The notes: generated by a model not told the origin, from the letters alone. A DNA stretch of 63,331 bases, filler included, from 20 parts of 20 records of this genome joined end to end with filler, not necessarily neighbours in it; one strand, 5' to 3'; positions 1 to 29,500 are shown, counted from the first letter of the whole stretch. Numbers and translations are program-made.

Positions 1-811
1 GCATATAGCCCATTTTTTTGCCGCAGTCGTAACTGTCGCCGGTCATCAGCATTGCATCAACGGATTGTTTTTTCGCCAGCTCGGCAATAGCATCAGTCAG
101 CTGAATACGTCCCCATGCACCAGGCTGAGTACGTTCCAGTTCCGGCCAAATATCGGCAGAAAGCACATAGCGACCTACGGCCATGATGTCTGAGTCCAGC
201 GTCTGCGGCTGATCCGGTTTTTCGATAAATTCAACAATGCGGCTGACTTTACCCTCACGGTCCAGCGGCTCTTTAGTCTGGATGACGGAGTATTCAGAGA
301 GGTCACCCGGCATACGTTTTGCCAGCACCTGGCTGCGGCCCGTTTCGTTGAAACGTGCAATCATGGCAGCAAGGTTGTAACGTAGCGGGTCGGCGCTGGC
401 ATCGTCGATCACAACGTCTGGCAGTACCACGACAAATGGGTTGTCACCAATGGCAGGTCGCGCACACAAAATGGAGTGGCCTAAACCTAAAGGTTCGCCC
501 TGACGCACGTTCATAATGGTCACGCCCGGCGGACAGATGGACTGTACTTCCGCCAGCAGTTGACGCTTCACGCGCTGCTCAAGGAGTGATTCTAACTCAT
601 AAGAGGTGTCGAAGTGGTTTTCGACCGCGTTCTTGGACGCGTGAGTTACCAGGAGGATTTCTTTGATCCCTGCAGCCACAATCTCGTCAACAATGTACTG
701 AATCATTGGCTTGTCGACGATTGGTAGCATCTCTTTGGGTATCGCCTTAGTGGCAGGCAACATATGCATCCCGAGACCCGCTACAGGAATAACTGCTTTT
801 AAATTCGTCAT
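1..811 (-). CDS. galF: UTP--glucose-1-phosphate uridylyltransferase-like protein GalF (3' end runs off window)
   Basis: Manual translation from ATG at 811 gives [30 protein letters not shown]...; absent from ORF track because no stop codon is in the window; lies downstream of wcaM as in E. coli. Confidence 0.93.
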
Positions 812-985
812 TATTTCATCCACCTGTAAAATGGTTGCTGAATTATAGCTTGTTCGATTTTTTTCGCCAGCATCAATTACCCTGAATTGATTACTGAATT
901 ACTTGTGATGTTACGCCGCTTCGTTGTGGATTGCAGTAGCATTGTTCCTAAGTATGACTCCATTTTTCCAGGAATGGTCGCAAAT

Positions 986-2163
986 CTACTCCCTCAGTTC
1001 CGGCAATCTAAAGTTAATCTTCTCCACATTAACAATATGGTGATTAATCCTGTCGATATCGACGGAGCTTTGTCCTTTTTCATTCACCGCATGAACATTT
1101 GCAAGAGACAGCAGTGTTTCTTTTTTCGCCATAAAAACACCACGAACGTCTTTGCGCATGTCAAAGTTCATGCTCAATGCGGGTCCAACTGAGGATTCCT
1201 GCATCACATTGATATTTCGCATAAAAAAATGTTGCGGTTTGTTGTGTAACTCCAGCGACGCACGCTTCATCTCAATGTTAGTTAGCGCCACAAAGGAAAC
1301 AGCATTCCCGGCGGAGATTTGAATGCCGCGCAATTTATAAGCAAGATGAGTATTATCCAGTTGAATATCATTCACCCGGAAATTTTGCGGTATCGAGAGA
1401 TATTTGCCTTTAATTACCCCATAGCCGATTAACATCCCGGCGCTATTAATCATTTCAATATTATCAATCACGAAATTGTCACAACCGTAAATAGCGACTG
1501 TCGCGTTATCAATGCCCGCTTTCTTACTGAAATCCGGCGTGATATTGCGGGCTTTGATATTACGAATAACAAAATGTTTACCATTTTCAACATGTATCAA
1601 CTGCCGACAATCCGATCCCGTGATATTCGCCACGACAAAGTTTTTCACTGCCTGGTCTTCCGGGTAGTTGTTATCATAAGTGCTTCCCGCAAGGCCTATG
1701 CCGATGCCCCAGTTGATTTTGCCGTTGGTACAGTTGATGCGCTCGATGACATGGTCAGATATCAAAATATCACGGTCGTTAATTGCCACGTTCCATTCAA
1801 TGGCGTCGCCTTGTAAGTCGCTGAACTTACAATTGGTGATGTTGGCACCGATAATCTGGTTATGAAATCCCTGGCGTAAGATGGCGTAATTAGCGTGGCT
1901 AACGGTCAGGTTATCGATGATCAGGTTGCGCATGACCCGTTTGTTTTTGCCGCCGATATAAATCTGCGTCACCGGGCCAAAGCCGCTCATAGTCAGCCCT
2001 TTGATGGTGCAGTCAGAACCACGCACATCCAGGGTGATGTTATGCATACTGCCGCCATCCTCCCCTGTCACCTGGCTGCCGTCCTGTAAGACAAATCGCC
2101 CTCTGCCGTTGCCGCGCAAGCTTCCAAGAATGTGTAACGTTTTACCGGGAGGGATAAAGATGC
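986..2163 (-). CDS. wcaM: Colanic acid biosynthesis protein WcaM (5' truncated by gap)
   Basis: ORF 986..2119 plus upstream in-frame sequence; recognisable WcaM sequence; adjacent to galF. Confidence 0.92.
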
Positions 2164-4683: not shown

Positions 4684-7557
4684 TTACTGGTATTCGCTAA
4701 TCGGTACGCAGGAGCAGAACAGGTTACGGTCGCCGTAAACATCATCCAGACGTTTCACTGTCGGCCAGTATTTGTCTGCCACACCTGCCGGGAATACCGC
4801 AACTTCACGGCTGTACGGATGCGCCCACTCGGCGACCAGTTCGCTCTGAATGTGCGGCGCGTTCACCAGCGGGTTATCTTCCAGCGGCCAGACACCGGCT
4901 TTCACCTGGTCAATTTCTGCGCGGATAGCCAGCATCGCGTCGATAAAGCGATCCAGTTCCACTTTGCTTTCAGATTCAGTCGGTTCAACCATCAGCGTAC
5001 CCGCCACCGGGAACGACATCGTCGGCGCGTGGAAACCGTAGTCGATCAGGCGCTTGGCAATATCCAGCTCGCTGATGCCGGTTTCTTCTTTCAGCGGGCG
5101 AATATCGAGAATACATTCGTGCGCCACGCGACCGTCGCGACCGGTATACAGCACCGGGAAGGCATCCTGCAGGCGGCTGGCAATATAGTTGGCGTTGAGG
5201 ATTGCCACCTGGCTTGCTTTTTTCAGCCCTTCTGCGCCCATCATGCGGATGTACATCCAGCTGATTGGCAGGATAGAGGCGCTACCGAACGGTGCCGCAG
5301 AAACCGCGCCCTGACGGGTTAACATGCCTTCGATTTGCACCACGCTATGACCCGGTACAAACGGTGCCAAATGCGCTTTCACGCCGATCGGTCCCATACC
5401 CGGACCACCACCGCCGTGCGGAATGCAGAAAGTTTTATGTAGGTTAAGGTGTGAAACGTCCGCACCAATAAAGCCCGGCGAGGTGATGCCAACCTGGGCG
5501 TTCATGTTCGCGCCATCAAGGTAAACCTGACCGCCGAACTGATGCACGACTTCACACACTTCACGGATCGTTTCTTCATACACGCCGTGGGTAGAAGGAT
5601 AAGTCACCATGATACAGGAGAGGTTATCGCCCGCCTGTTCCGCTTTCGCGCGCAGATCAGTCAGATCGATGTTGCCGTTTTTATCACACGCCACAACCAC
5701 CACCTGCATTCCTGCCATATGTGCAGAAGCGGGGTTAGTTCCGTGCGCAGAAGCCGGGATCAGGCAGATATCGCGATGCCCTTCGTTGCGGCTTTCATGA
5801 TAATGACGAATCGCCAGCAGGCCCGCGTATTCGCCCTGTGCGCCAGAGTTCGGCTGCATACAAACGGCGTCGTAACCGGTCAGTTTCACCAGCCAGTCAG
5901 CCAGCTGCGCAATCATCTGCTGATAACCTTCGGCCTGCTCCGGCGGGCAGAACGGGTGCAGTTCGGCAAATTCCGGCCAGGTGATTGGGATCATCTCGGC
6001 GGCGGCGTTCAGTTTCATGGTGCAGGAACCCAGCGGGATCATCGCCTGATTCAGCGCCAGATCTTTACGCTCCAGCGAGTGCATATAGCGCATCATTTCG
6101 GTTTCGCTGTGGTAGCGATTAAACACCGGATGGGTGAGGATTTCGTCGTCGCGCAGCATCGCAGGCTGGATAGAGCGGCTGTCGTGAGCCACGTCTTTGT
6201 CCAGCGTGTCGATGTCCAGGCCGTGGTTATCGCCCAGCAGCACGTTGAAAAGCTGCATTACGTTTTCACGCGTGGTTGTTTCATCAAGGGTGATCCCAAC
6301 CGCGTTCAGAATATCGCTACGCAGGTTGATTTCAGCCGCTTCGGCACGCGTCAGTACGCCCGCTTTGTCGGCCACTTCCACACACAAGGTGTCGAAATAG
6401 TGCGCATGGCGCAGTTTCAGACCTTTTTGTTGCAGGCCCGCCGCCAGGATATCGGTCAGACGGTGAATGCGGTTAGCGATACGTTTCAGGCCAACCGGGC
6501 CGTGATAAACGGCATACAGGCTGGCGATGTTTGCCAGCAGTACCTGGGAAGTACAAATGTTGGAGTTCGCTTTCTCACGGCGGATATGTTGCTCGCGAGT
6601 CTGCATCGCCATGCGCAGCGCGGTATTGCCAGCTGCATCTTTCGATACACCGATAATACGGCCCGGCATTGAGCGTTTGTATTCATCTTTCGCCGCAAAG
6701 AATGCCGCGTGTGGGCCACCGTAGCCCATCGGCACGCCGAAGCGTTGCGCCGAACCAAAAACAATATCCGCGCCCTGTTTACCCGGCGCAGTTAACAGCA
6801 CCAGCGCCATAATATCGGCGGCAACGCTGACCACAATTTTGCGTGATTTCAGTTCGCTAATAAGCGCAGTGTAGTCGTGAATTTCACCGGTAGTGCCTAC
6901 CTGCTGTAACAGCACGCCGAAGACGTCCTGATGGTCGAGCACTTTTTGCGCGTCATCGACAATCACTTCAAAACCAAAGGTTTCGGCACGAGTACGGACC
7001 ACATCCAGCGTTTGCGGATGCACATCGGAAGCCACGAAGAAGCGGTTGGCATTTTTCAGTTTGCTGACGCGTTTCGCCATCGCCATTGCTTCGGCGGCAG
7101 CGGTGGCCTCGTCCAGAAGAGAAGCAGAGGCCATATCCAGTCCAGTCAAATCCAGCGTTACCTGCTGGAAGTTGAGCAGTGCTTCAAGGCGGCCCTGGGA
7201 GACTTCAGGTTGATACGGAGTGTACGCGGTATACCAGCCCGGATTTTCCAGCATGTTACGCAGGATAACCGGCGGTAGCTGCACGGCGGTGTAACCCATG
7301 CCGATGTAAGACGTGAAGCGTTTATTGCGACTGGCAATAGCCTTGAGTTCTGCCAGTGCGGCGTATTCGGTCGCCGGTGCGCCAACCTGCGGTGGTGTCG
7401 CAAGTTGAATATCTTTCGGCACAATCTGGCCGGTCAGCGCGTTTAACGATTGTGCACCAACGGCATTCAGCATTTCTTGCTGTTGCGCGGCGTCCGGTCC
7501 GATATGGCGTTCAATAAAAGCGCCGCTGTTTTCAAGCTGGCTTAACGTCTGTGTCAT
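4684..7557 (-). CDS. gcvP: Glycine decarboxylase, P protein of the glycine cleavage system
   Basis: 957 aa; PLP-lysine motif HLNLHKTF. Confidence 0.97.
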
Positions 7558-10362: not shown

Positions 10363-11189
10363 CCTTCACGAGATTCCCGCGCCCCGGTAAACGCGCCTTT
10401 TACATGACCAAACAGCGTCGACATGGCGGTATCGCCGCGCAGGGTGGCGCAGTTCACTTCCACAAACGCGCCGCTAAACTGATGCCGCGCCTGTTTTAAC
10501 TCTAAGATGCGTCGCGCCAGAAATGACTTGCCCGCGCCGGTTGGACCGTTAAGCAGAATCGGCGCGCGGGATTTGATCGCCACTTTTTCGATCTGCTCAA
10601 TCATGCGGTTGAAGTGGGGGTTACGCGTGGCAATGCCGGACTTAAGAAAATCAAGCGTTTGCTGGCGTTCCTCGGCAAAGCGGCTGGCGATGGCGTTATA
10701 ACGGCTTAAATCGAGATCGATAATCGTTACTTCACCTGGGCCGCGCGGCTGTTCTTTTTTGCGCGGAGGTGAAGATTGTATCAGCCGGGCGGGCAGGTAA
10801 CGCGCTTCTGCCAGCAGAAACCAGCAAATCTGCGCGACGTGGGTACCGGTGGTGATGTGAATTAAATAGTCTTCTTTTTCTGGCTGAAACTCGTAACCAC
10901 GGGCGAAATCATGCAGGCAGGCGTAGACCTCTTCGAAATCCCACGGGTTATGCAGTTCAATCTCAACGCTCACCACTTCTGTTTCTGGCGAAACGCTGGC
11001 GATATCGCGTTTAAGCGTTTCAAATAGCGAGCGCGAGCGGGCGTCGTGCAACAATTCCAGTCGATCGATGACCAACGATTCTTGCTGGCATAAACAGAGT
11101 GTCGGACGCCATTTTGACCAGCGCTGACTGCCGCGCCCGGCATAATCCAGTACGGTACCGACAAAACCAAAAGCCACTGTTTTACGCAT
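10363..11189 (-). CDS. rtcR: Sigma54-dependent activator RtcR (3' truncated)
   Basis: N-terminal CARF-type region, Walker A GPTGAGKS, GAFTGA loop; divergent from rtcB. Confidence 0.95.
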
Positions 11190-11323
11190 CTTAGATATCC
11201 TTATAAAAGACGATATTTCATTATCGGTAAATTGGCTTTGCGGGAAATCTCCGGTTACGGACGTAAAGATATAATCTTTTTTAAAACAATGAATTAAAAA
11301 ATTAAGCTGCTTATTTAATTTTC

Positions 11324-11339
11324 TGGCACGACGGTTGCA
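11324..11339 (+). promoter_or_regulatory. Sigma54 -24/-12 promoter of rtcBA
   Basis: TGGCAC-GACGG-TTGCA matches the TGGCAC-N5-TTGC consensus. Confidence 0.88.
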
Positions 11340-11377
11340 ATTATCAGGACAGCAAACAACGAAAAGAGAAAAACAAA

Positions 11378-12604
11378 ATGAATTACGAATTACTGACCAC
11401 TGAAAATGCCCCGGTAAAAATGTGGACCAAAGGCGTGCCGGTAGAGGCCGATGCGCGTCAGCAACTTATTAATACGGCGAAGATGCCGTTTATTTTCAAA
11501 CATATTGCGGTAATGCCTGATGTACACCTGGGTAAAGGTTCCACCATTGGTAGCGTGATCCCGACCAAAGGGGCGATTATTCCGGCGGCGGTGGGCGTGG
11601 ATATTGGCTGTGGAATGAACGCGCTGCGTACCGCGTTAACGGCGGAAGACCTGCCTGAAAACCTGGCAGAGCTGCGTCAGGCGATTGAAACGGCCGTGCC
11701 GCACGGGCGTACCACTGGCCGTTGTAAACGTGATAAAGGTGCCTGGGAAAATCCACCTGTTAACGTCGATGCTAAATGGGCTGAGCTTGAAGCCGGTTAT
11801 CAGTGGTTAACGCAAAAATATCCCCGTTTCCTGAATACCAATAACTATAAACACCTGGGAACGCTGGGAACCGGTAACCACTTTATTGAAATCTGCCTTG
11901 ATGAGTCGGACCAGGTGTGGATTATGCTGCACTCCGGTTCACGCGGAATTGGTAACGCCATCGGGACTTACTTTATCGATCTGGCACAAAAAGAGATGCA
12001 GGAAACGCTTGAGACGTTGCCGTCGCGTGATCTGGCGTACTTTATGGAAGGTACGGAATACTTTGATGATTACCTGAAAGCCGTGGCCTGGGCGCAGCTT
12101 TTTGCCAGCCTTAACCGCGATGCGATGATGGAAAACGTGGTAACGGCATTGCAGAGCATTACGCAGAAAACGGTCAGACAGCCACAAACGCTGGCGATGG
12201 AAGAGATCAACTGTCACCACAACTATGTGCAAAAAGAACAGCACTTTGGTGAAGAGATCTACGTGACGCGTAAAGGCGCGGTGTCTGCGCGTGCTGGTCA
12301 ATATGGAATTATTCCCGGTTCGATGGGAGCAAAAAGCTTTATCGTCCGTGGGCTGGGAAATGAAGAGTCGTTCTGTTCGTGCAGCCACGGTGCCGGGCGG
12401 GTAATGAGCCGAACTAAAGCGAAAAAACTGTTCAGCGTGGAAGATCAAATTCGTGCCACCGCGCATGTGGAATGCCGTAAAGATGCCGAAGTGATCGACG
12501 AAATCCCGATGGCGTATAAAGATATTGATGCGGTGATGGCGGCACAAAGCGATCTGGTGGAAGTTATCTATACCCTGCGTCAGGTGGTGTGCGTAAAAGG
12601 ATAA
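11378..12604 (+). CDS. rtcB: RNA-splicing/repair ligase RtcB
   Basis: 408 aa; motifs MPDVH, GVDIGCG, GTGNHF, HSGSRG and SHGAGR. Confidence 0.97.
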   Translation: MNYELLTTENAPVKMWTKGVPVEADARQQLINTAKMPFIFKHIAVMPDVHLGKGSTIGSVIPTKGAIIPAAVGVDIGCGMNALRTALTAEDLPENLAELRQAIETAVPHGRTTGRCKRDKGAWENPPVNVDAKWAELEAGYQWLTQKYPRFLNTNNYKHLGTLGTGNHFIEICLDESDQVWIMLHSGSRGIGNAIGTYFIDLAQKEMQETLETLPSRDLAYFMEGTEYFDDYLKAVAWAQLFASLNRDAMMENVVTALQSITQKTVRQPQTLAMEEINCHHNYVQKEQHFGEEIYVTRKGAVSARAGQYGIIPGSMGAKSFIVRGLGNEESFCSCSHGAGRVMSRTKAKKLFSVEDQIRATAHVECRKDAEVIDEIPMAYKDIDAVMAAQSDLVEVIYTLRQVVCVKG

Positions 12605-12734
<130 letters not shown>

Positions 12735-21535: not shown

Positions 21536-21635
21536 NNNNNNNNNNNNNNNNNNNNNNNNNNNNNNNNNNNNNNNNNNNNTTAATTAATTAANNNNNNNNN
21601 NNNNNNNNNNNNNNNNNNNNNNNNNNNNNNNNNNN

Positions 21636-22098
21636 CCCGGGAAAGGGGGCGCGCGTGACGACAAACGCACGAGCAGAGGATCCGAAGAGCAGTGCAGACA
21701 GACCTACACAGTGAGGGGTGCGCGCGTCCGTGAGAAAGAAGCGTCGTAACACATGAAAATCACTGAAAACAGCGAAGCAAGTGGGGAACTTGCACGAATA
21801 CAACCTGGAAAGAAATCGATAAACCACACTACCAAGATACAAAAACACGAAGCGCAACAGTGACAATACGAGATGATCGCGCGCGCTTACCGATGGCGGC
21901 AGGATAGCCCAATGGTAGCTGTGTTTCTCCGAGCTCATGATTCTTTCGTTCTCTTGCATCGATCGCCGCACCCGAAAGTGCATAGATAAGACCGGCACCA
22001 CCAGCTGCAAGGACTACAGGCAGCGATCGCGATTGGGCAAAATGCATTGCCCCTACAGCGCCAATGGCAGCTGCAGACAGATAGGTTCCTGTTGGCAT
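21636..22098 (-). CDS. Spliced TMEM14 (UPF0136)-like small membrane protein, 3' truncated. Exons 22098-21891 and 21703-21636; intron 21890-21704; an alternative in-frame ATG lies at 22128
   Basis: Spliced product MPTGTYLSAAAIGAVGAMHFAQSRSLPVVLAAGGAGLIYALSGAAIDARERKNHELGETQLPLGYPAAIG/LSALLFGSSARAFVVTRAPFPG; phase-1 GTAAGC..TGTGTAG intron; Gly/Ala-rich TM pattern resembles TMEM14. Confidence 0.65.
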
Positions 22099-22163
22099 CC
22101 TAACTTGATACTGCACTTGAATATACATCTTCACTTTCGTGTTGCCCTCTTTCTCTTGTCTCG

Positions 22164-22179
22164 GGTCAAAGATTTGACC
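22164..22179. promoter_or_regulatory. Palindrome in the divergent intergenic region (candidate shared regulatory element)
   Basis: GGTCAAA-GA-TTTGACC, perfect 7-bp arms, between the two start codons. Confidence 0.3.
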
Positions 22180-22278
22180 TAGCTACGGTATCGGAGACAG
22201 TCAATTTCGTTTGAGGAGATGTTTTCACATTTTGGTGCTGTTTTGCGGTATTGTCGAGTCTGTTTGTGGGACCTTTCC

Positions 22279-23641
22279 ATGGCGACTGCATTCTTCAACC
22301 CCGAAGCTTGGCTTCAAGCGTTTCGCGGCGCTTCCGCGAGCGGTGATCGTACAACAATGCGCCGAATCGTCCCAGTAGGCTAACTCCGCTACAGGTAGCA
22401 TGCTTAACAAACTCCGTATCGACATTCAACAGCAAACCATCCGCGTTTGCGAAGCTGGTGGATTCGAATTCACGTCCGGGAAGCAGGTGACCGTTCCTAA
22501 CCGCACTGCGGTCGCAGCTATGGTGAGTGTTGCTGCTGATTGCATTTAGTTTCATGCACTTACGTAGTGCTTGTTATTTCACATCAGGTTCGCCAGTCCG
22601 TGATGTACCAGAACAGTCACCCGTGGCAGGTTCGGCGCCAGGGGACGTACCCGAACTGCGTGTACTGCTGCAAAGGCGATTGTCTGGAAGCGGCAGAGTG
22701 GCAGCTCAGTCGCGTACGTGTGGGGTCGCTAGCTGCGTTCTTTGGGTGTGAGTGCATCAGAACTGTGCTTGAGAGAGAACATTGGCTCATGCACGATTGT
22801 CATGCGCTGTCAGTTCTGTGTGTTCATGTGGACTGTGTGGACTCTGCGGTATCGTGCTTTTAACCATAGGGTTCACTCATCTGCTATGATGCGTGTGTAT
22901 TGTGTAGTGTATCTATTGTGTGGTGTCCTTGCGAGTGTCGCGTATTGTCTGTTGCTGATTATTCAATGTATGCTGACCTCCTTTCATTTGGTTCTGTGTG
23001 CTAGGGACTCAACCCTGTTGTCCTCAACATGGCTAATGCGTGTACGTGCTGGTAATTTCCTCTCTGCGAAAGGGTGTGCGTTTGCTTGTCGCCTCGCACT
23101 GTCCTTCCTTACGTGTGAGTGCATTCTCTCTCAATGTGTGCGTGCGTCGGTTGGTTTATATCTACATATGTTGTGTAGTTATTCCTGGGGGCGGATGGAA
23201 GCACGGCAGCGGTGCACAAGAGGAAAACCTACATCGTCGCTCCAACTATTTTCAGTTTCTGGATGACCCGGGGCGGCTCTGGAACGACCGGCCGTGGAAA
23301 TACCCGATTCCGGAATTTGGTACGTTGTTGTGTGTGTAGCATGTGTGCGTTTCTCTTGGCATTGTGTACATTCTGTAAATGTGCTGCGTGTGTATGTGCG
23401 TGTATCTGTGGATCTTGGCAGCGTAATTGTATATATTGGGAAGTTTGTGTGAGATGGTGGTCCTGTGCCAATGGATTGAGTGTGGGTTTCGGTGACCCCT
23501 TCATGAGGGTATAGACTGTGAGAGACAGAGCGCGTTGCTATCATGGATAGTAGAGTGAGTTGTCAACACAACACTTCTAACATAGGTCCCACGAACCGTA
23601 TTGTTGTGTAGGCGGCATCTACAGCCCCAACGTGACGGTGT
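22279..23641 (+). CDS. Spliced bacterial-type poly(ADP-ribose) glycohydrolase (DUF2263/TIGR02452-like macrodomain), 3' truncated. Exons 22279-22348, 22395-22522, 22588-22713, 23005-23041, 23179-23319 and 23612-23641+
   Basis: Five GT..AG introns splice in frame with no stops over 177 codons, giving ...KGDCLEAAEWQLSRGLNPVVLNMANAFIPGGGWKHGSGAQEENLHRRSNY...YPIPEFGGIYSPNVTV, which contains the PARG GGG-X7-QEE motif. Confidence 0.88.
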
Positions 23642-23741
23642 NNNNNNNNNNNNNNNNNNNNNNNNNNNNNNNNNNNNNNNNNNNNTTAATTAATTAANNN
23701 NNNNNNNNNNNNNNNNNNNNNNNNNNNNNNNNNNNNNNNNN

Positions 23742-25391
23742 TTGGCGAACGCCGTCGGGCTGGCGATAGCAGAGCGTACACTGGCGGCGCAGTTTAACCA
23801 GCCAGACCATGAGATCGTCGATCACTTCACCTATGTGTTTATGGGCGACGGCTGCCTGATGGAAGGTATTTCCCACGAAGTCTGTTCGCTGGCAGGCACG
23901 CTGGGACTGGGCAAGCTGATTGGTTTTTACGATCACAACGGTATTTCCATCGACGGTGAAACAGAAGGCTGGTTTACCGACGATACGGCAAAACGTTTTG
24001 AAGCCTATCACTGGCATGTGATCCATGAAATCGACGGTCACGATCCGCAGGCGGTGAAGGAAGCGATCCTTGAAGCGCAAAGCGTGAAAGATAAGCCGTC
24101 GCTGATTATCTGCCGTACGGTGATTGGCTTTGGTTCGCCGAATAAAGCAGGTAAGGAAGAGGCGCACGGCGCACCACTGGGGGAAGAAGAAGTGGCGCTG
24201 GCACGGCAAAAACTGGGCTGGCACCATCCGCCATTTGAGATCCCTAAAGAGATTTATCACGCCTGGGATGCCCGTGAAAAAGGCGAAAAAGCGCAGCAGA
24301 GCTGGAATGAGAAGTTTGCCGCCTATAAAAAGGCTCATCCGCAACTGGCAGAAGAGTTTACCCGACGGATGAGCGGTGGTTTACCGAAGGACTGGGAGAA
24401 AACGACTCAGAAATATATCAATGAGTTACAGGCAAATCCGGCGAAAATCGCTACCCGTAAGGCTTCGCAAAATACGCTTAACGCTTACGGGCCGATGCTG
24501 CCTGAGTTGCTCGGCGGTTCGGCGGATCTGGCTCCCAGCAACCTGACCATCTGGAAAGGTTCTGTTTCGCTGAAGGAAGATCCAGCGGGCAACTACATTC
24601 ACTACGGGGTGCGTGAATTTGGCATGACCGCTATCGCCAACGGCATCGCGCACCACGGCGGCTTTGTGCCGTATACCGCGACGTTCCTGATGTTTGTTGA
24701 ATACGCCCGTAACGCCGCGCGGATGGCGGCACTGATGAAAGCGCGGCAGATTATGGTTTATACCCACGACTCAATTGGCCTGGGCGAAGATGGTCCGACG
24801 CACCAGGCTGTTGAGCAACTGGCCAGCCTGCGCTTAACGCCAAATTTCAGCACCTGGCGACCGTGCGATCAGGTGGAAGCGGCGGTGGGCTGGAAGCTGG
24901 CGGTTGAGCGCCACAACGGACCGACGGCACTGATCCTCTCAAGGCAGAATCTGGCCCAGGTGGAACGTACGCCGGATCAGGTTAAAGAGATTGCTCGTGG
25001 CGGTTATGTGCTGAAAGACAGCGGCGGTAAGCCAGATATTATTCTGATTGCCACCGGTTCAGAGATGGAAATTACCCTGCAAGCGGCAGAGAAATTAGCA
25101 GGAGAAGGTCGCAATGTACGCGTAGTTTCCCTGCCCTCGACCGATATTTTCGACGCCCAGGATGAGGAATATCGGGAGTCGGTGTTGCCTTCTAACGTTG
25201 CGGCTCGCGTGGCGGTGGAAGCAGGTATTGCCGATTACTGGTACAAGTATGTTGGTCTGAAAGGGGCAATTGTCGGGATGACGGGTTACGGGGAATCTGC
25301 TCCGGCGGATAAGCTGTTCCCGTTCTTTGGCTTTACCGCCGAGAATATTGTGGCAAAAGCGCATAAGGTGCTGGGAGTGAAAGGTGCCTGA
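23742..25391 (+). CDS. tktB: Transketolase 2 (5' truncated)
   Basis: TPP motif [24 protein letters not shown]; adjacent to ypfG. Confidence 0.95.
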
Positions 25392-25395
25392 TGGT

Positions 25396-25469
25396 GATTG
25401 CCGGATGCTGATTGCCGGATGCGACGCTGACGCGTCTTATCCGGCCTACAGCGTCTTATCCGGCCTACA
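25396..25469. repeat. REP (PU) element with tandem partial duplications of both ends
   Basis: GCCGGATGCGACGCTGACGCGTCTTATCCGGCCTACA at 25414-25450; TGATTGCCGGATGC and GCGTCTTATCCGGCCTACA each occur twice. Confidence 0.9.
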
Positions 25470-25485
25470 TGTCCCGCCATTTTGT

Positions 25486-26529
25486 TTAACGGGTGATCCA
25501 CAACGTGGGCCAGGCGTCTGGCCCATGCCAGTTATCGCAGGTGGGTTCTGCGGCGTAACGCACCAGGCGAAAACGCTGACCGTCAAAGCGCCAGCGCGCC
25601 TGAATGCCACAATCGCTTAATCCGCGCCCTTTCGCTAAGGTCACCAGTTCACGCGATTTCTCATCAAATGTTGCGTTCATCAGTTCCAGTTCATTCGTCT
25701 CCTGACCGTTGTTGAACGGCAAACGCAACCGAACCGGGCGCGAAGCTAGTGGCTTTTTACGCGACACAATCCATGCCAAATCAATGGTGTTATAGGCCCC
25801 TGCCTCACAGCTAATCATCATCAGCGCTTTATCATCAGTCAGCGCAGTGACATTCACCTCACGACGCAATGGATCAAGCGAGCAGCGCAGACCATTCATC
25901 CGCCAGTTTCCATAATCCAGCAAATCGTTGCGTTCTTCGAGTGAGAGTGGCGTCGGCGTTGGGTTAACCACCGCGACCTCTTTCAGCGCAGGCGCGGGCG
26001 GTACGCTGAGCGGCGGTTCGTCCCCTTTCTTGATCCACGCGGTTTCACTGCCAACGCGCTTTTGCTGAGCATCAATAAACAACAACGCTGCTTTTAAGCC
26101 ACTCAGAGAAATGGTCTGATCGCCATCGCGTAAGGTGATTGCCTTCCCTTCCTGAATCATCTGCAAAAACGCGGTGATGGTTGCCGTATCATCGGTTACT
26201 AATAACCATGGTGAAATCCGCCACTTGTCACCACTTAACGCCAACGGCTCGCCATCTAACAGCAGCCGTGGCGCTATCTCCCCTTCTGACGCCTCCGGCG
26301 ACTTCAATCCGCCGCGCTCAATACGTAAAACGGCATCGGTATGCGCCCCGGCGCTGCGGCTCAGGGTCATCACCAGTCCATTATGATCGCCCGTATTACG
26401 CGCCACGCAGAAATTTTGGTTATTACAGGTGACCTGCCAGTCGGAAAACGCCCGTTGCGCTGGTGCCGCCCACACCAAAGACGTCGGCAACAAAGCGAAA
26501 AAAAAGAGAAGGAAAATGCGATAGCGCAT
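25486..26529 (-). CDS. ypfG: DUF1176 exported protein YpfG
   Basis: 347 aa with signal peptide; lies between tktB and nudK. Confidence 0.88.
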   Translation of the reverse strand: MRYRIFLLFFFALLPTSLVWAAPAQRAFSDWQVTCNNQNFCVARNTGDHNGLVMTLSRSAGAHTDAVLRIERGGLKSPEASEGEIAPRLLLDGEPLALSGDKWRISPWLLVTDDTATITAFLQMIQEGKAITLRDGDQTISLSGLKAALLFIDAQQKRVGSETAWIKKGDEPPLSVPPAPALKEVAVVNPTPTPLSLEERNDLLDYGNWRMNGLRCSLDPLRREVNVTALTDDKALMMISCEAGAYNTIDLAWIVSRKKPLASRPVRLRLPFNNGQETNELELMNATFDEKSRELVTLAKGRGLSDCGIQARWRFDGQRFRLVRYAAEPTCDNWHGPDAWPTLWITR

Positions 26530-26654
26530 GGACGGTACGACCCCAGAAGTTCAAACAAACAGCACAAGTCGTATCTTCGTTGCGCAGGTAGCGCGGCTCA
26601 ATCGGATTTGTCGGATTGAGCCAATAATAAACAACGAAATATTATTGTTATTTT

Positions 26655-27230
26655 TCAGTCCATTAAATGTGACGTTTGCAAATAGTTAAGCAATAACACC
26701 GTCTTACCGTCACGTATCTCGCCGGTTTTGATCATCTCCAGCGCCTGGCTGAACGGCAGCTCGAGCACTTCAATATCTTCATCTTCGACACCGCCACCGG
26801 CGTTAGCGCGCTGATTGTCACTGTATTCGGCGATAAAAAAGTGGATTAGCTCAGTCACACCGCCTGGCGACATATACAGTTCAAATAATTTGCGCACTTC
26901 ACCCACTTCATAGCCCGTCTCTTCAATCGCTTCTTTGCGAATACACACTTCCGGTTCGTCGTTATCCAGCAGCCCGGCGCAGCTTTCAATCAGCTGCCCG
27001 CTTTCATTGCCATTAACCCAGGTAGCGACACGGAACTGACGAATCAGAACCACGGTCTTTTTCTTCGTGTTGTACAGGAGGATCGTCGCACCATTGCCGC
27101 GATCGTACACTTCACGTTTATGGCGGATAACTTCGCCGTCTTTGCGCGTGAGATCGTAAGTAATGTTGTGCAGGGTGAAATAGTTATCGGAGAGAATTTT
27201 GTCTTTAATGAGGGTGATTTGTTGCGTCAT
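26655..27230 (-). CDS. nudK: GDP-mannose hydrolase NudK
   Basis: 191 aa from MTQQIT; Nudix box [22 protein letters not shown]. Confidence 0.93.
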
Positions 27231-27297
27231 ACCGACTCCACAGCGCGAAATGAACAATTATCTTACGCTGTGAAGTCGGGTTTGTCTGCGCAGGCTA

Positions 27298-29277
27298 TCA
27301 GTGAGATTTGACTGATTTTACCCCCAGCCAGTCAATAATCCCCTGTGCCGCATGACGTCCTTCTGCCATTGCGGTAACCACCAGATCCGCACCACGCACG
27401 GCGTCACCACCAGCGAAGATTTTCGGATTGGTGGTCTGGTAACGGTACTGGCTTTCCACATCCGCGATGATGCGGCCCCATTTGTCTACCGTTACACCGT
27501 GCGACTCCAGCCACGGCATCCCGTGCGGATTGAAGCCAAACGCCATAATCACCGCGTCGGCTGGCATGACAAATTCACTGCCTTCCACCGGCACTGGACG
27601 CCGACGCCCCTGGGCATCCGGCTCTCCAAGACGCGTGCGCAGGAAACGAATCCCGCAGACGTGACCTTGTTCATTCAGCTCAAGCGCCACCGGCTGGACG
27701 TTAAATTCGAAGTTGGCCCCCTCTTCGCGGGCGTTCTTCACTTCTTTCTTCGAGCCTGGCATGTTAGCTTCATCACGACGATAAGCGCAGGTGACGTTAC
27801 TCGCGCCGTGGCGCAGTGCGGTACGCACACAGTCCATCGCGGTGTCGCCGCCGCCCAGTACCACGACGTTAAGTCCGGCGGTATTGATAAACGGCTCTTC
27901 CGGTAGCTCTTCGAGCCCCATCACCTGTTTAGTGTTGGCAATGAGGAACGGCAGCGCGTCATAAACGCCCGGCGCATCTTCATTGGGTAAACCCGCTTTC
28001 ATGGAACGGTAAGTGCCTACGCCAACGAAGACCGCGTCGTATTGTTCCAAAAGCGAATCCAAAGAGACATCTTTACCCACTTCACAATTGAGTTCGAAGT
28101 GAATCCCCATCGCGCTGAAGATTTCCCGACGGCGTGCCAGCAGGGATTTATCCAGTTTGAAAGAAGGAATGCCGAAAGTGAGCAAGCCACCGATTTCTGG
28201 ATGGCGATCGTACACCGTCACCCCCACGCCATTGCGGGTCAGAACATCCGCACAGGCCAGCCCTGCCGGACCTGCACCGATAATCGCCACCCGCTTGTCC
28301 ACTTTGGTGACATGGCTTAAGTCAGGACGCCAACCTTTCGCCAACGCCTGATCTGAAATGTAGCGTTCAATGTTGCCGATAGTTACCGCGCCGTGCTCAT
28401 CGCGAATAGTACAGGCACCTTCACACAAACGGTCTTGCGGACAAACGCGTCCGGTAATTTCCGGCAGGGTGTTGGTCTGGTGAGAAAGCTCGACGGCGGC
28501 GTCGATGTTTCCGGCTTTCACCAGTTCAATCCACTGCGGTATATGGTTATGCAGCGGGCAGGTCCATTCACAAACGCTGTGCTCGCCGCACTTAAGGCAG
28601 CGCGAGGCTTCCCGTTGTGCCTGGTCGGCGCGAAATGGCAGATAAATTTCATCAAAACCGGTTTTGCGCGCTTCAATCGCCAGTTTATCCGGCTCGCCAC
28701 GCGCGGGCGTTGCCTGCATTTGTTCGACTTTACTCATTACCGGCATTTCTTGCGCCGCGGTACTGGCATGCCACGGTTGATGTTCCTGACGCGCGGTGCG
28801 CAAGCGGCGGGATTTCGCCATGCCGGAGAGTGCGACGTCAGTGACCAGTTGCAGCGCGTCCGCCGGGCAATTCTCAACACAGGCAGGACCGTTTTCGCGC
28901 CCCGCACAAAGGTCGCATTTATGCGCCGTGGCTTTTACTTTTCCTGCCGCGACGGGTGTCAGGACGATTTGCATCGTACCAAAAGGACAGGCCACCACGC
29001 AGGATTTACAGCCAATACACTTTTGCTGATTGACCTGAATGCTGTCATCAACGTGGCTGATTGCGCCATTAGGGCAGCTACGGGCGCAGGGCGCATCTTC
29101 ACAATGGTGACAGGTCACTGCACTACGTTGCTGTTGATGTTTGATAACCGTAATTCGGGGATGAAAATGGTGTTGGCTCAGGACATGTTGCTCATCATTG
29201 TGAGCCATGACACAGGCGATTTCACAAGCATGACAACCCAGACATTGCTGACTGTTGGCCATAATAAAACGATTCAT
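27298..29277 (-). CDS. aegA: Fe-S/FAD oxidoreductase AegA (ferredoxin domain fused to GltD-like domain)
   Basis: 659 aa; N-terminal CxxCxxC ferredoxin motifs, GAGPAG and GGGDTAMDC. Confidence 0.93.
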   Translation of the reverse strand: MNRFIMANSQQCLGCHACEIACVMAHNDEQHVLSQHHFHPRITVIKHQQQRSAVTCHHCEDAPCARSCPNGAISHVDDSIQVNQQKCIGCKSCVVACPFGTMQIVLTPVAAGKVKATAHKCDLCAGRENGPACVENCPADALQLVTDVALSGMAKSRRLRTARQEHQPWHASTAAQEMPVMSKVEQMQATPARGEPDKLAIEARKTGFDEIYLPFRADQAQREASRCLKCGEHSVCEWTCPLHNHIPQWIELVKAGNIDAAVELSHQTNTLPEITGRVCPQDRLCEGACTIRDEHGAVTIGNIERYISDQALAKGWRPDLSHVTKVDKRVAIIGAGPAGLACADVLTRNGVGVTVYDRHPEIGGLLTFGIPSFKLDKSLLARRREIFSAMGIHFELNCEVGKDVSLDSLLEQYDAVFVGVGTYRSMKAGLPNEDAPGVYDALPFLIANTKQVMGLEELPEEPFINTAGLNVVVLGGGDTAMDCVRTALRHGASNVTCAYRRDEANMPGSKKEVKNAREEGANFEFNVQPVALELNEQGHVCGIRFLRTRLGEPDAQGRRRPVPVEGSEFVMPADAVIMAFGFNPHGMPWLESHGVTVDKWGRIIADVESQYRYQTTNPKIFAGGDAVRGADLVVTAMAEGRHAAQGIIDWLGVKSVKSH

Positions 29278-29481
29278 AACGACCTTCTTTTTGGTTGTAA
29301 AAACCTTATTCTTTATATGAGTGTTGTTATTACCCGACTTACAGGGGAATCGGCAATGTTCATGTGCCCAGAATAAGTAACTATTTCGCTATAAACTGTG
29401 GCAGATCAAATAATCCCATCACTGACTAAATTGCGTTTCAGCGAACTGGAACATTAATGATTTTTTGTGGAGAAGACGCGT

Positions 29482-29500
29482 GTGATTGTTAAACGACCCG
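29482..29500 (+). CDS. narQ: First codons of the nitrate/nitrite sensor NarQ
   Basis: GGAG RBS followed by GTG ATT GTT AAA CGA CCC (MIVKRP); divergent from aegA as in E. coli. Confidence 0.6.

Follow-up and report, generated by a model that had tools for sequence, protein, structure and literature searches.

The ninth of the 20 contigs in the analysed stretch of DNA (63,331 bases; hereafter, the window) is very probably a nuclear fragment of a microbial eukaryote whose DNA was sequenced along with that of a K-12-like E. coli, and not a piece of the E. coli genome. The source eukaryote was probably unicellular. This contig, contig 9, carries two divergent genes with GT-AG introns; splicing of one of them restores a match to a known protein family, and the nearest named relatives of that gene are eukaryotic. 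An earlier reading made from the bases only (the sequence-only reading), which had described a eukaryotic contig among E. coli contigs, was thereby supported.

The window is composed of 20 separate contigs (2006-5759 nt) linked by artificial, non-biological spacers, each built of 44 N, the sequence TTAATTAATTAA and a further 44 N. Contig 9 forms a separate block of 2006 nt flanked by this spacer on both sides, and the limits previously assigned to it proved exact. Its first six bases are CCCGGG, a SmaI/XmaI site. The layout around it is as follows:

21536..21635, no strand: artificial joiner between contig 8 and contig 9 (44 N, TTAATTAATTAA, 44 N)
21636..23641, no strand: contig 9, very probably eukaryotic nuclear-type DNA, 2006 nt, GC 0.509; no bacterial match, outlier composition
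23642..23741, no strand: artificial joiner between contig 9 and contig 10, recognised by the spacer sequence

Contig 9 is the odd one out among the 20 by a wide margin. All of the other 19 contigs gave one end-to-end match on the chromosome of the nearest reference genome (G001), spread across its 4.6 Mb, whereas contig 9 had zero matches there; the claim that it is the only contig without a recognisable E. coli gene was thus confirmed. Four of the 19 contigs (malPQ, tkt-narQ, rtcBRA and wcaM-galF) were also compared with 5,426 complete E. coli genomes, in which the best records were 99.9-100% identical. Specifically, the wcaM-galF contig was 100% identical to MG1655, C600 and ER1709, the rtcBRA contig (contig 5) to DH5alpha and NEB 5-alpha, and the tkt-narQ contig to MG1655; the malPQ contig (contig 8) was 99.9% identical to its best matches, E. 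coli C and WG5, which are not K-12. Three of the four contigs tested therefore had a best match of 100% to K-12 laboratory strains. The wcaM-galF region is strain-variable, with at least 99% identity in 348 of 4726 matching records.

Searching contig 9 by blastn with 11-base words, at a sensitivity of about 65-70% identity, returned nothing from 20,395 E. coli records, 72,556 plasmids (PLSDB) and 50,697 phage records (GenBank). A high-identity hit to the chromosome, a plasmid or a phage of an enterobacterium, which had been named beforehand as the observation that would speak against a eukaryotic origin, was thus sought and not found. No 16-mer was common to contig 9 and the other 19 contigs. 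The suggested comparison of tetranucleotide profiles with the neighbouring contigs marked contig 9 as an outlier, its correlation with the pooled E. coli contigs being 0.21 as compared with 0.68-0.92 for each E. coli contig against the others. Its longest stop-to-stop frame measured 177 aa, shorter than that of any other contig (231-972 aa). The absence of a long open reading frame, as noted earlier, accordingly holds in relative terms; stop-to-stop frames of at least 100 aa still cover 78% of the contig. Additionally, a tRNA scan of contig 9 found none, an Rfam scan gave no match at E values up to 1, and a tandem-repeat scan found one trivial 12-nt repeat. No public sequencing runs, RNA data sets included, were listed for its 2006 bases.

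The plus strand of contig 9 contains the 5' part of a gene for a single-domain microbial-type poly(ADP-ribose) glycohydrolase (PARG), which we read from the sequence as five exons and four introns. Microbial-type PARG (DUF2263) is an established hydrolase with a single macrodomain. The gene was modelled with the following parts:

22400..22522, plus strand: exon 1, from the ATG at 22400, 41 codons; profile positions 56-90, 13.4 bits alone, collinear tblastn match
22523..22587, plus strand: intron 1, 65 nt, GTGAGT...CAG; GT-AG ends
22588..22713, plus strand: exon 2, 42 codons; profile positions 95-135
22714..23004, plus strand: intron 2, 291 nt, GTACGT...TAG, with CTGAC 28 nt before the acceptor
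23005..23041, plus strand: exon 3, 37 nt, ending in phase 1; tblastn identity of 70-92% to the same segment of many homologues
23042..23178, plus strand: intron 3, 137 nt, GTACGT...TGTGTAG; GT-AG ends
23179..23319, plus strand: exon 4, with the catalytic loop; PF10021 34.2 bits, TIGR02452 21 bits, 41 homologues
23320..23611, plus strand: intron 4, 292 nt, GTACGT...TGTGTAG, with CTAAC 31 nt before the acceptor
23612..23641, plus strand: start of exon 5, which runs off the contig; tblastn identity of 70-90% at 23611-23640

The family assignment started from exon 4. Its translation (23181-23318, 46 aa) scored 34.2 bits (E 4.1e-8) against PF10021, 'Microbial-type PARG, catalytic domain', which is above the gathering score of 23.5. 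The same 46 residues scored 21 bits against NCBIfam TIGR02452, whose whole-protein cut-off of 50 lies above the score of this piece. The exon carries an intact catalytic loop, with a GGG and a QEE separated by 7 residues, fitting the pattern GGGx{6,8}QEE, and in a collection of 5.8 billion proteins it retrieved 41 proteins, 39 of which carry PF10021. The gene on contig 9 resembles microbial-type PARG (PF10021/DUF2263/TIGR02452; solved structure 3SIG) in having an exon 4 over the threshold and a catalytic loop that aligns weakly to the bacterial-type PARG 3SIG (E 0.69). It differs from it in that the gene is split by four introns and is about 37-47% identical to the homologues aligning over most of its length.

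The exon-intron structure was assessed with a profile of 371 positions made from 25 of the 41 homologues (280-450 aa). The spliced product of 152 residues has no stop and matched profile positions 56-208 of 371 as a single domain with 178.5 bits, unbroken at every exon junction. Because the homologues had been retrieved with exon 4 only, exons 1-3 constitute the independent test; joined, they scored 54.6 bits over profile positions 56-151, abutting positions 154-198 covered by exon 4. Exons 1 and 2 joined gave 31.4 bits, as compared with 13.4 and 8.4 bits alone. Meanwhile, the unspliced reading from the ATG at 22400 scored 8.0 bits, and no other frame of contig 9 exceeded 6.3 bits on this profile. 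Moreover, tblastn with the EukProt homologue P0021 placed its residues 16-47, 50-92, 99-110, 114-160 and 158-165 collinearly on contig 9, at 22403-22498, 22573-22695, 23005-23040, 23187-23327 and 23611-23634, respectively. The end of the contig truncates the gene and removes about 60% of its coding sequence, including the diphosphate-binding loop (the G[A,V][F,Y] patch) in the C-terminal part. The complete enzyme would remove poly(ADP-ribose) in the source organism.

A second gene lies head-to-head with the first on the minus strand, the two start codons being 301 nt apart. It was modelled with the following parts:

21891..22098, minus strand: exon 1 of a probable TMEM14-like gene, from the ATG at 22098, 69 codons plus 1 nt; PF03647 20.3 bits, relative P0042
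21704..21890, minus strand: intron, 187 nt, GTAAGC...TGTGTAG; the donor directly follows the last residue that aligns with P0042
21636..21703, minus strand: putative exon 2, running off the contig end; in frame, phase 1, a hydrophobic stretch
22099..22399, no strand: spacer of 301 nt between the divergent start codons, defined by the coordinates of both ATGs

Exon 1 of this gene matched PF03647 ('Transmembrane proteins 14C') from the protein N-terminus over profile positions 3-53 of 92, with 20.3 bits, which is below the gathering score of 24.8. A phmmer search over 1.84 billion representative proteins retrieved one relative, P0042 (E 7.6e-12), from a JGI metagenome contig, which aligned without gaps over all 69-70 residues with 49-50% identity and itself reached 25.1 bits against PF03647, over the threshold. 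The likeness to TMEM14 thus consists of an exon that aligns from the N-terminus and a relative that passes the threshold; the unlikeness consists of the sub-threshold score of exon 1 itself and of a second half of the protein that is not securely placed. From this homology, the minus-strand gene, which has at least one GT-AG intron, probably, though not provenly, encodes a small membrane protein of the TMEM14 type.

The similarity to P0042 ends at a glycine where contig 9 reads G|GTAAGC, and past this donor point P0042 is Cys-rich and dissimilar. P0042 therefore resembles the read-through of an intron by a prokaryotic gene caller, which supports the conservation of the donor at 21891/21890 in a relative. 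As for the acceptor, TGTGTAG at 21704 is the heptamer that also ends two introns of the PARG-like gene; it keeps the frame and prolongs the hydrophobic stretch to the contig end. An alternative, TTCCAG at 21806, is likewise in frame, and on balance we favour the acceptor at 21704 with some reserve. The candidate second exons had no match in Pfam or the PDB. A word-indexed protein search with the TMEM14-like exon returned nothing and, with alignment A1, only P0042 itself; scores in the ESM Atlas were at most 0.80, which is at noise level, and a PDB sequence search with pieces of the gene gave nothing. The sole genome-contig locus found with this exon, L017 from an Acidobacteriota MAG, was rejected as a chance word match in a long, high-GC open reading frame. 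Judging from its translation, that frame appeared to be phosphoglycerate-mutase-like. The 301-nt spacer presumably comprises a shared promoter and the 5'UTR region.

Altogether, five introns were located, of which the four in the PARG-like gene are supported by homology and one belongs to the TMEM14-like gene. The sequence-only reading had counted six introns of the spliceosomal type without stating their positions; five could be placed (four on the plus strand and one on the minus strand), and the sixth was not found. All five are of the GT...AG type, three of the five begin with GTACGT, and three of the five end with TGTGTAG; the branch-like motifs CTGAC and CTAAC precede the acceptors of introns 2 and 4 by 28-31 nt. 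Intron removal restored a single frame and a continuous match to the homologues for all four PARG-like introns, and in the TMEM14-like gene an intron with GT-AG ends begins where the homology stops. The introns make up nearly half of contig 9. Those of the PARG-like gene are rich in T (0.34-0.42) and G (0.23-0.31) and lower in A (0.13-0.20) and C (0.15-0.22), as compared with balanced exons, and the TG-rich non-coding tracts reported previously correspond to these four introns. The TMEM14-like intron has 0.39 T and 0.13 A on its sense strand. Every intron is rich in T when read in the direction of the gene that contains it, and the AT skew accordingly flips near 22100-22400. GC3 differs between the two genes (0.67 vs 0.39), both values coming from small samples. 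Both genes would be expressed, and their transcripts spliced at the junctions given above.

Every named protein among the 41 PARG homologues was eukaryotic. They came from bdelloid rotifers (Rotaria and Adineta), the amoebozoan Pelomyxa schiedti, the chlorarachniophyte Lotharella oceanica and several EukProt transcriptomes, so that rotifers and protists, rather than fungi, provide the nearest named relatives. Their identity was 48-76% over exon 4 and 37-47% for those spanning most of the 152 residues. The best protein matches were metagenome proteins for both genes, at 76% over 46 aa (PARG-like) and 49% (TMEM14-like), and no DNA or protein match in the collections searched exceeded 76% identity (over 46 aa). 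A 33-mer taken from exon 4, the most conserved of the exons, had no exact copy among the GTDB-species contigs or the JGI metagenome contigs. A search of metagenome contigs for related loci yielded 16, each only remotely similar (45-78% across a portion of exon 4), none of which was a locus of the same organism. Three metagenome relatives (L005, L006 and L008) also have a GT-AG intron, at a different position.

A quick maximum-likelihood tree was computed from 35 rows, namely the contig 9 protein and the 34 of the 41 homologues with at least 220 aa; the seven shorter homologues and P0042 were left out, and a careful search was unfinished. The contig 9 protein was placed beside the metagenome protein P0001 (SH-aLRT 90) and then the EukProt protein P0021 (92), outside the rotifer clade and not beside Pelomyxa. 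A bdelloid rotifer origin is considered unlikely from this placement; bdelloid genomes, which we take to be AT-rich with short introns, would also be a poor fit for contig 9. A fungal origin was likewise considered unlikely, considering the long introns and the lack of fungal proteins among the 41 matches. Our best guess for the source organism is a protist. Contig 9 might be the only trace so far of a eukaryotic lineage without a sequenced close relative that lived or was cultured with E. coli, which we advance only tentatively; a protist that has already been sequenced and is unannotated is at least as likely a source, the collections searched having included no eukaryotic nucleotide database.

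The E. coli contigs also bear on how the two DNAs came together. The proposal of a mixed sample gained some support, since three contigs were 100% identical to K-12 strains (MG1655, C600 and DH5alpha), with the reservation that the fourth was 99.9% identical to E. coli C and WG5. E. coli fragments that are 99.9-100% identical to known strains, three of the four to K-12 laboratory strains, fit a laboratory mixture, which seems the most economical reading. A culture of the eukaryote may have been fed with, or handled alongside, K-12 E. coli, the bacterium serving as food or as a cloning host. Alternatively, the mixing could date from library preparation, sequencing or binning, through cross-contamination or the mis-binning of a low-coverage mixture. 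The GC content of contig 9 (0.509) resembles that of E. coli, which may be why it was carried along with the bacterial contigs. The E. coli contigs are 2-6 kb long and none is shorter than 2006 nt; a K-12-like strain in such pieces is suggestive of low coverage for this component and of a length filter at 2 kb.

Three other explanations were weighed against a eukaryotic contaminant. The eukaryotic DNA could be a cloned insert, from a plasmid, fosmid or BAC library clone, inside an E. coli K-12 cloning host. The complete identity of contig 5 to the cloning strains DH5alpha and NEB 5-alpha and the start of contig 9 exactly at the SmaI/XmaI site would agree with this, but a hexamer at a contig end can be due to chance, and non-cloning K-12 strains (MG1655 and C600) match the E. 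coli contigs just as completely. Moreover, contig 9 has no vector sequence and no match in the 72,556 plasmid records, and a multicopy clone would normally be expected to assemble beyond a 2-kb fragment; we therefore regard such an insert as improbable. The presence of five introns and two genes within 2 kb, with introns of up to 292 nt accounting for nearly half of the contig, and of named relatives that are cellular eukaryotes argues against a large DNA virus of a eukaryote, for example, a giant virus with spliceosomal-type introns. Some giant viruses do carry host-like genes and a few introns; none of the results pointed to a virus, and a viral origin has only a very slight chance of being correct.

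The remaining explanation is that contig 9 is genuine E. coli DNA, either an island acquired horizontally or degraded bacterial sequence, with GT..AG pairs that lie by chance between the decayed frames of a bacterial TIGR02452 gene. Its attraction lies in the PF10021/TIGR02452 family, which is described as common in bacteria (PMC7050489). Against it, contig 9 had no match in the 5,426 complete E. coli genomes and no 16-mer in common with the other contigs, and its closest relatives are eukaryotic. Additionally, each of the four interruptions of the PARG-like gene has GT-AG ends, is rich in T on the sense strand and leaves an exact reading frame once removed, and the gene on the opposite strand has the same architecture. 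This explanation is largely refuted, and we find it scarcely credible. A nuclear fragment of a microbial eukaryote thus remains the preferred reading of contig 9.

Contamination across kingdoms is a frequent and well-documented problem of public assemblies, as in the account of Conterminator (PMC7218494). Contig 9 is like the cases of that type, as they are presented there, in being a short contig from another domain within a single-organism assembly, with a foreign composition and without a match to the labelled taxon. It is unlike them in that it matches no sequenced organism in the collections searched, among which there was no eukaryotic nucleotide database. Given that contig 9 has no match of its own, a similarity-based cleaner might flag only the missing E. 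coli match. The biology of contig 9 is otherwise unremarkable, and it is an ordinary cross-kingdom contaminant; the sole mildly unusual point is the absence of its source organism from those same collections, again with no eukaryotic nucleotide database among them.

We recommend deleting contig 9 from the E. coli assembly or marking it there, which would prevent its PARG-like and TMEM14-like genes from being mistaken for accessory DNA of E. coli or for a case of horizontal transfer. When a gene of an unsequenced eukaryote is split by introns, it can slip past similarity-based contamination screens because it matches nothing; here, the contig was betrayed by its failure to match the labelled species, by its composition and by homology that emerged on splicing. 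For the PARG family, which has been described mostly from bacteria and fungi, the gene on contig 9 adds a member of the protist type.

The 20 contigs of the window range in length from 2006 to 5759 nt, and their chromosomal map positions are scattered. They appear to come from a highly fragmented assembly or bin of low coverage, in which only contigs longer than approximately 2 kb were kept.

Judging by sequence identity, the E. coli component appears to be a K-12 laboratory strain. Three contigs (window positions 1–2163, 10363–12734 and 23742–29500) showed 100% identity to MG1655, C600, ER1709, DH5alpha or NEB 5-alpha. One of the three carries the strain-variable wcaM-galF region, which was matched at 99% or higher in just 348 of 4726 records. 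The best matches of contig 8 (18328–21535) were E. coli C and WG5, at 99.9%. Compared with G001, an E. coli genome with a reported completeness of 44%, the E. coli contigs showed identities of 91% to 100%. The lowest values tested belonged to contig 1 (92%) and contig 5 (91%), yet both were 100% identical to K-12 strains; the lower figures may be due to masked stretches or to a different phylogroup. Additionally, an element of approximately 38 nt in contig 10 (window ~25412–25450) matched dozens of G001 sites with 86–95% identity, the matches being those from query positions 7077–7135. A pattern of this kind is characteristic of the REP/BIME repeats that lie between E. coli genes.

Contig 9, the eukaryotic contig, begins exactly with CCCGGG (SmaI/XmaI site; window 21636–21641), which may be due to chance or may mark a point where DNA was cloned or reads were trimmed. 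Contig 9 contains no vector sequence. Its two neighbouring genes differ strongly in GC3, although in small samples: 0.39 for the TMEM14-like exon (21891–22098) versus 0.67 for the PARG-like coding sequence (22400–23641).

Three metagenome loci, L005, L006 and L008, encode relatives of the PARG-like gene, with 64–71% identity over residues 71–138 or 71–129. The following features were found in them:

L005, 5100–5180: frame switch across a short GTAAA...TTTAG segment
L008, ~180–265: frame switch across a short GTAAA...TTTAG segment
L006: frame switch across a short GTAAA...TTTAG segment

The intron position in these three genes differs from that in the PARG-like gene of contig 9. As read from their sequences, the PARG-like genes of all three loci are eukaryotic and intron-bearing, as in contig 9.
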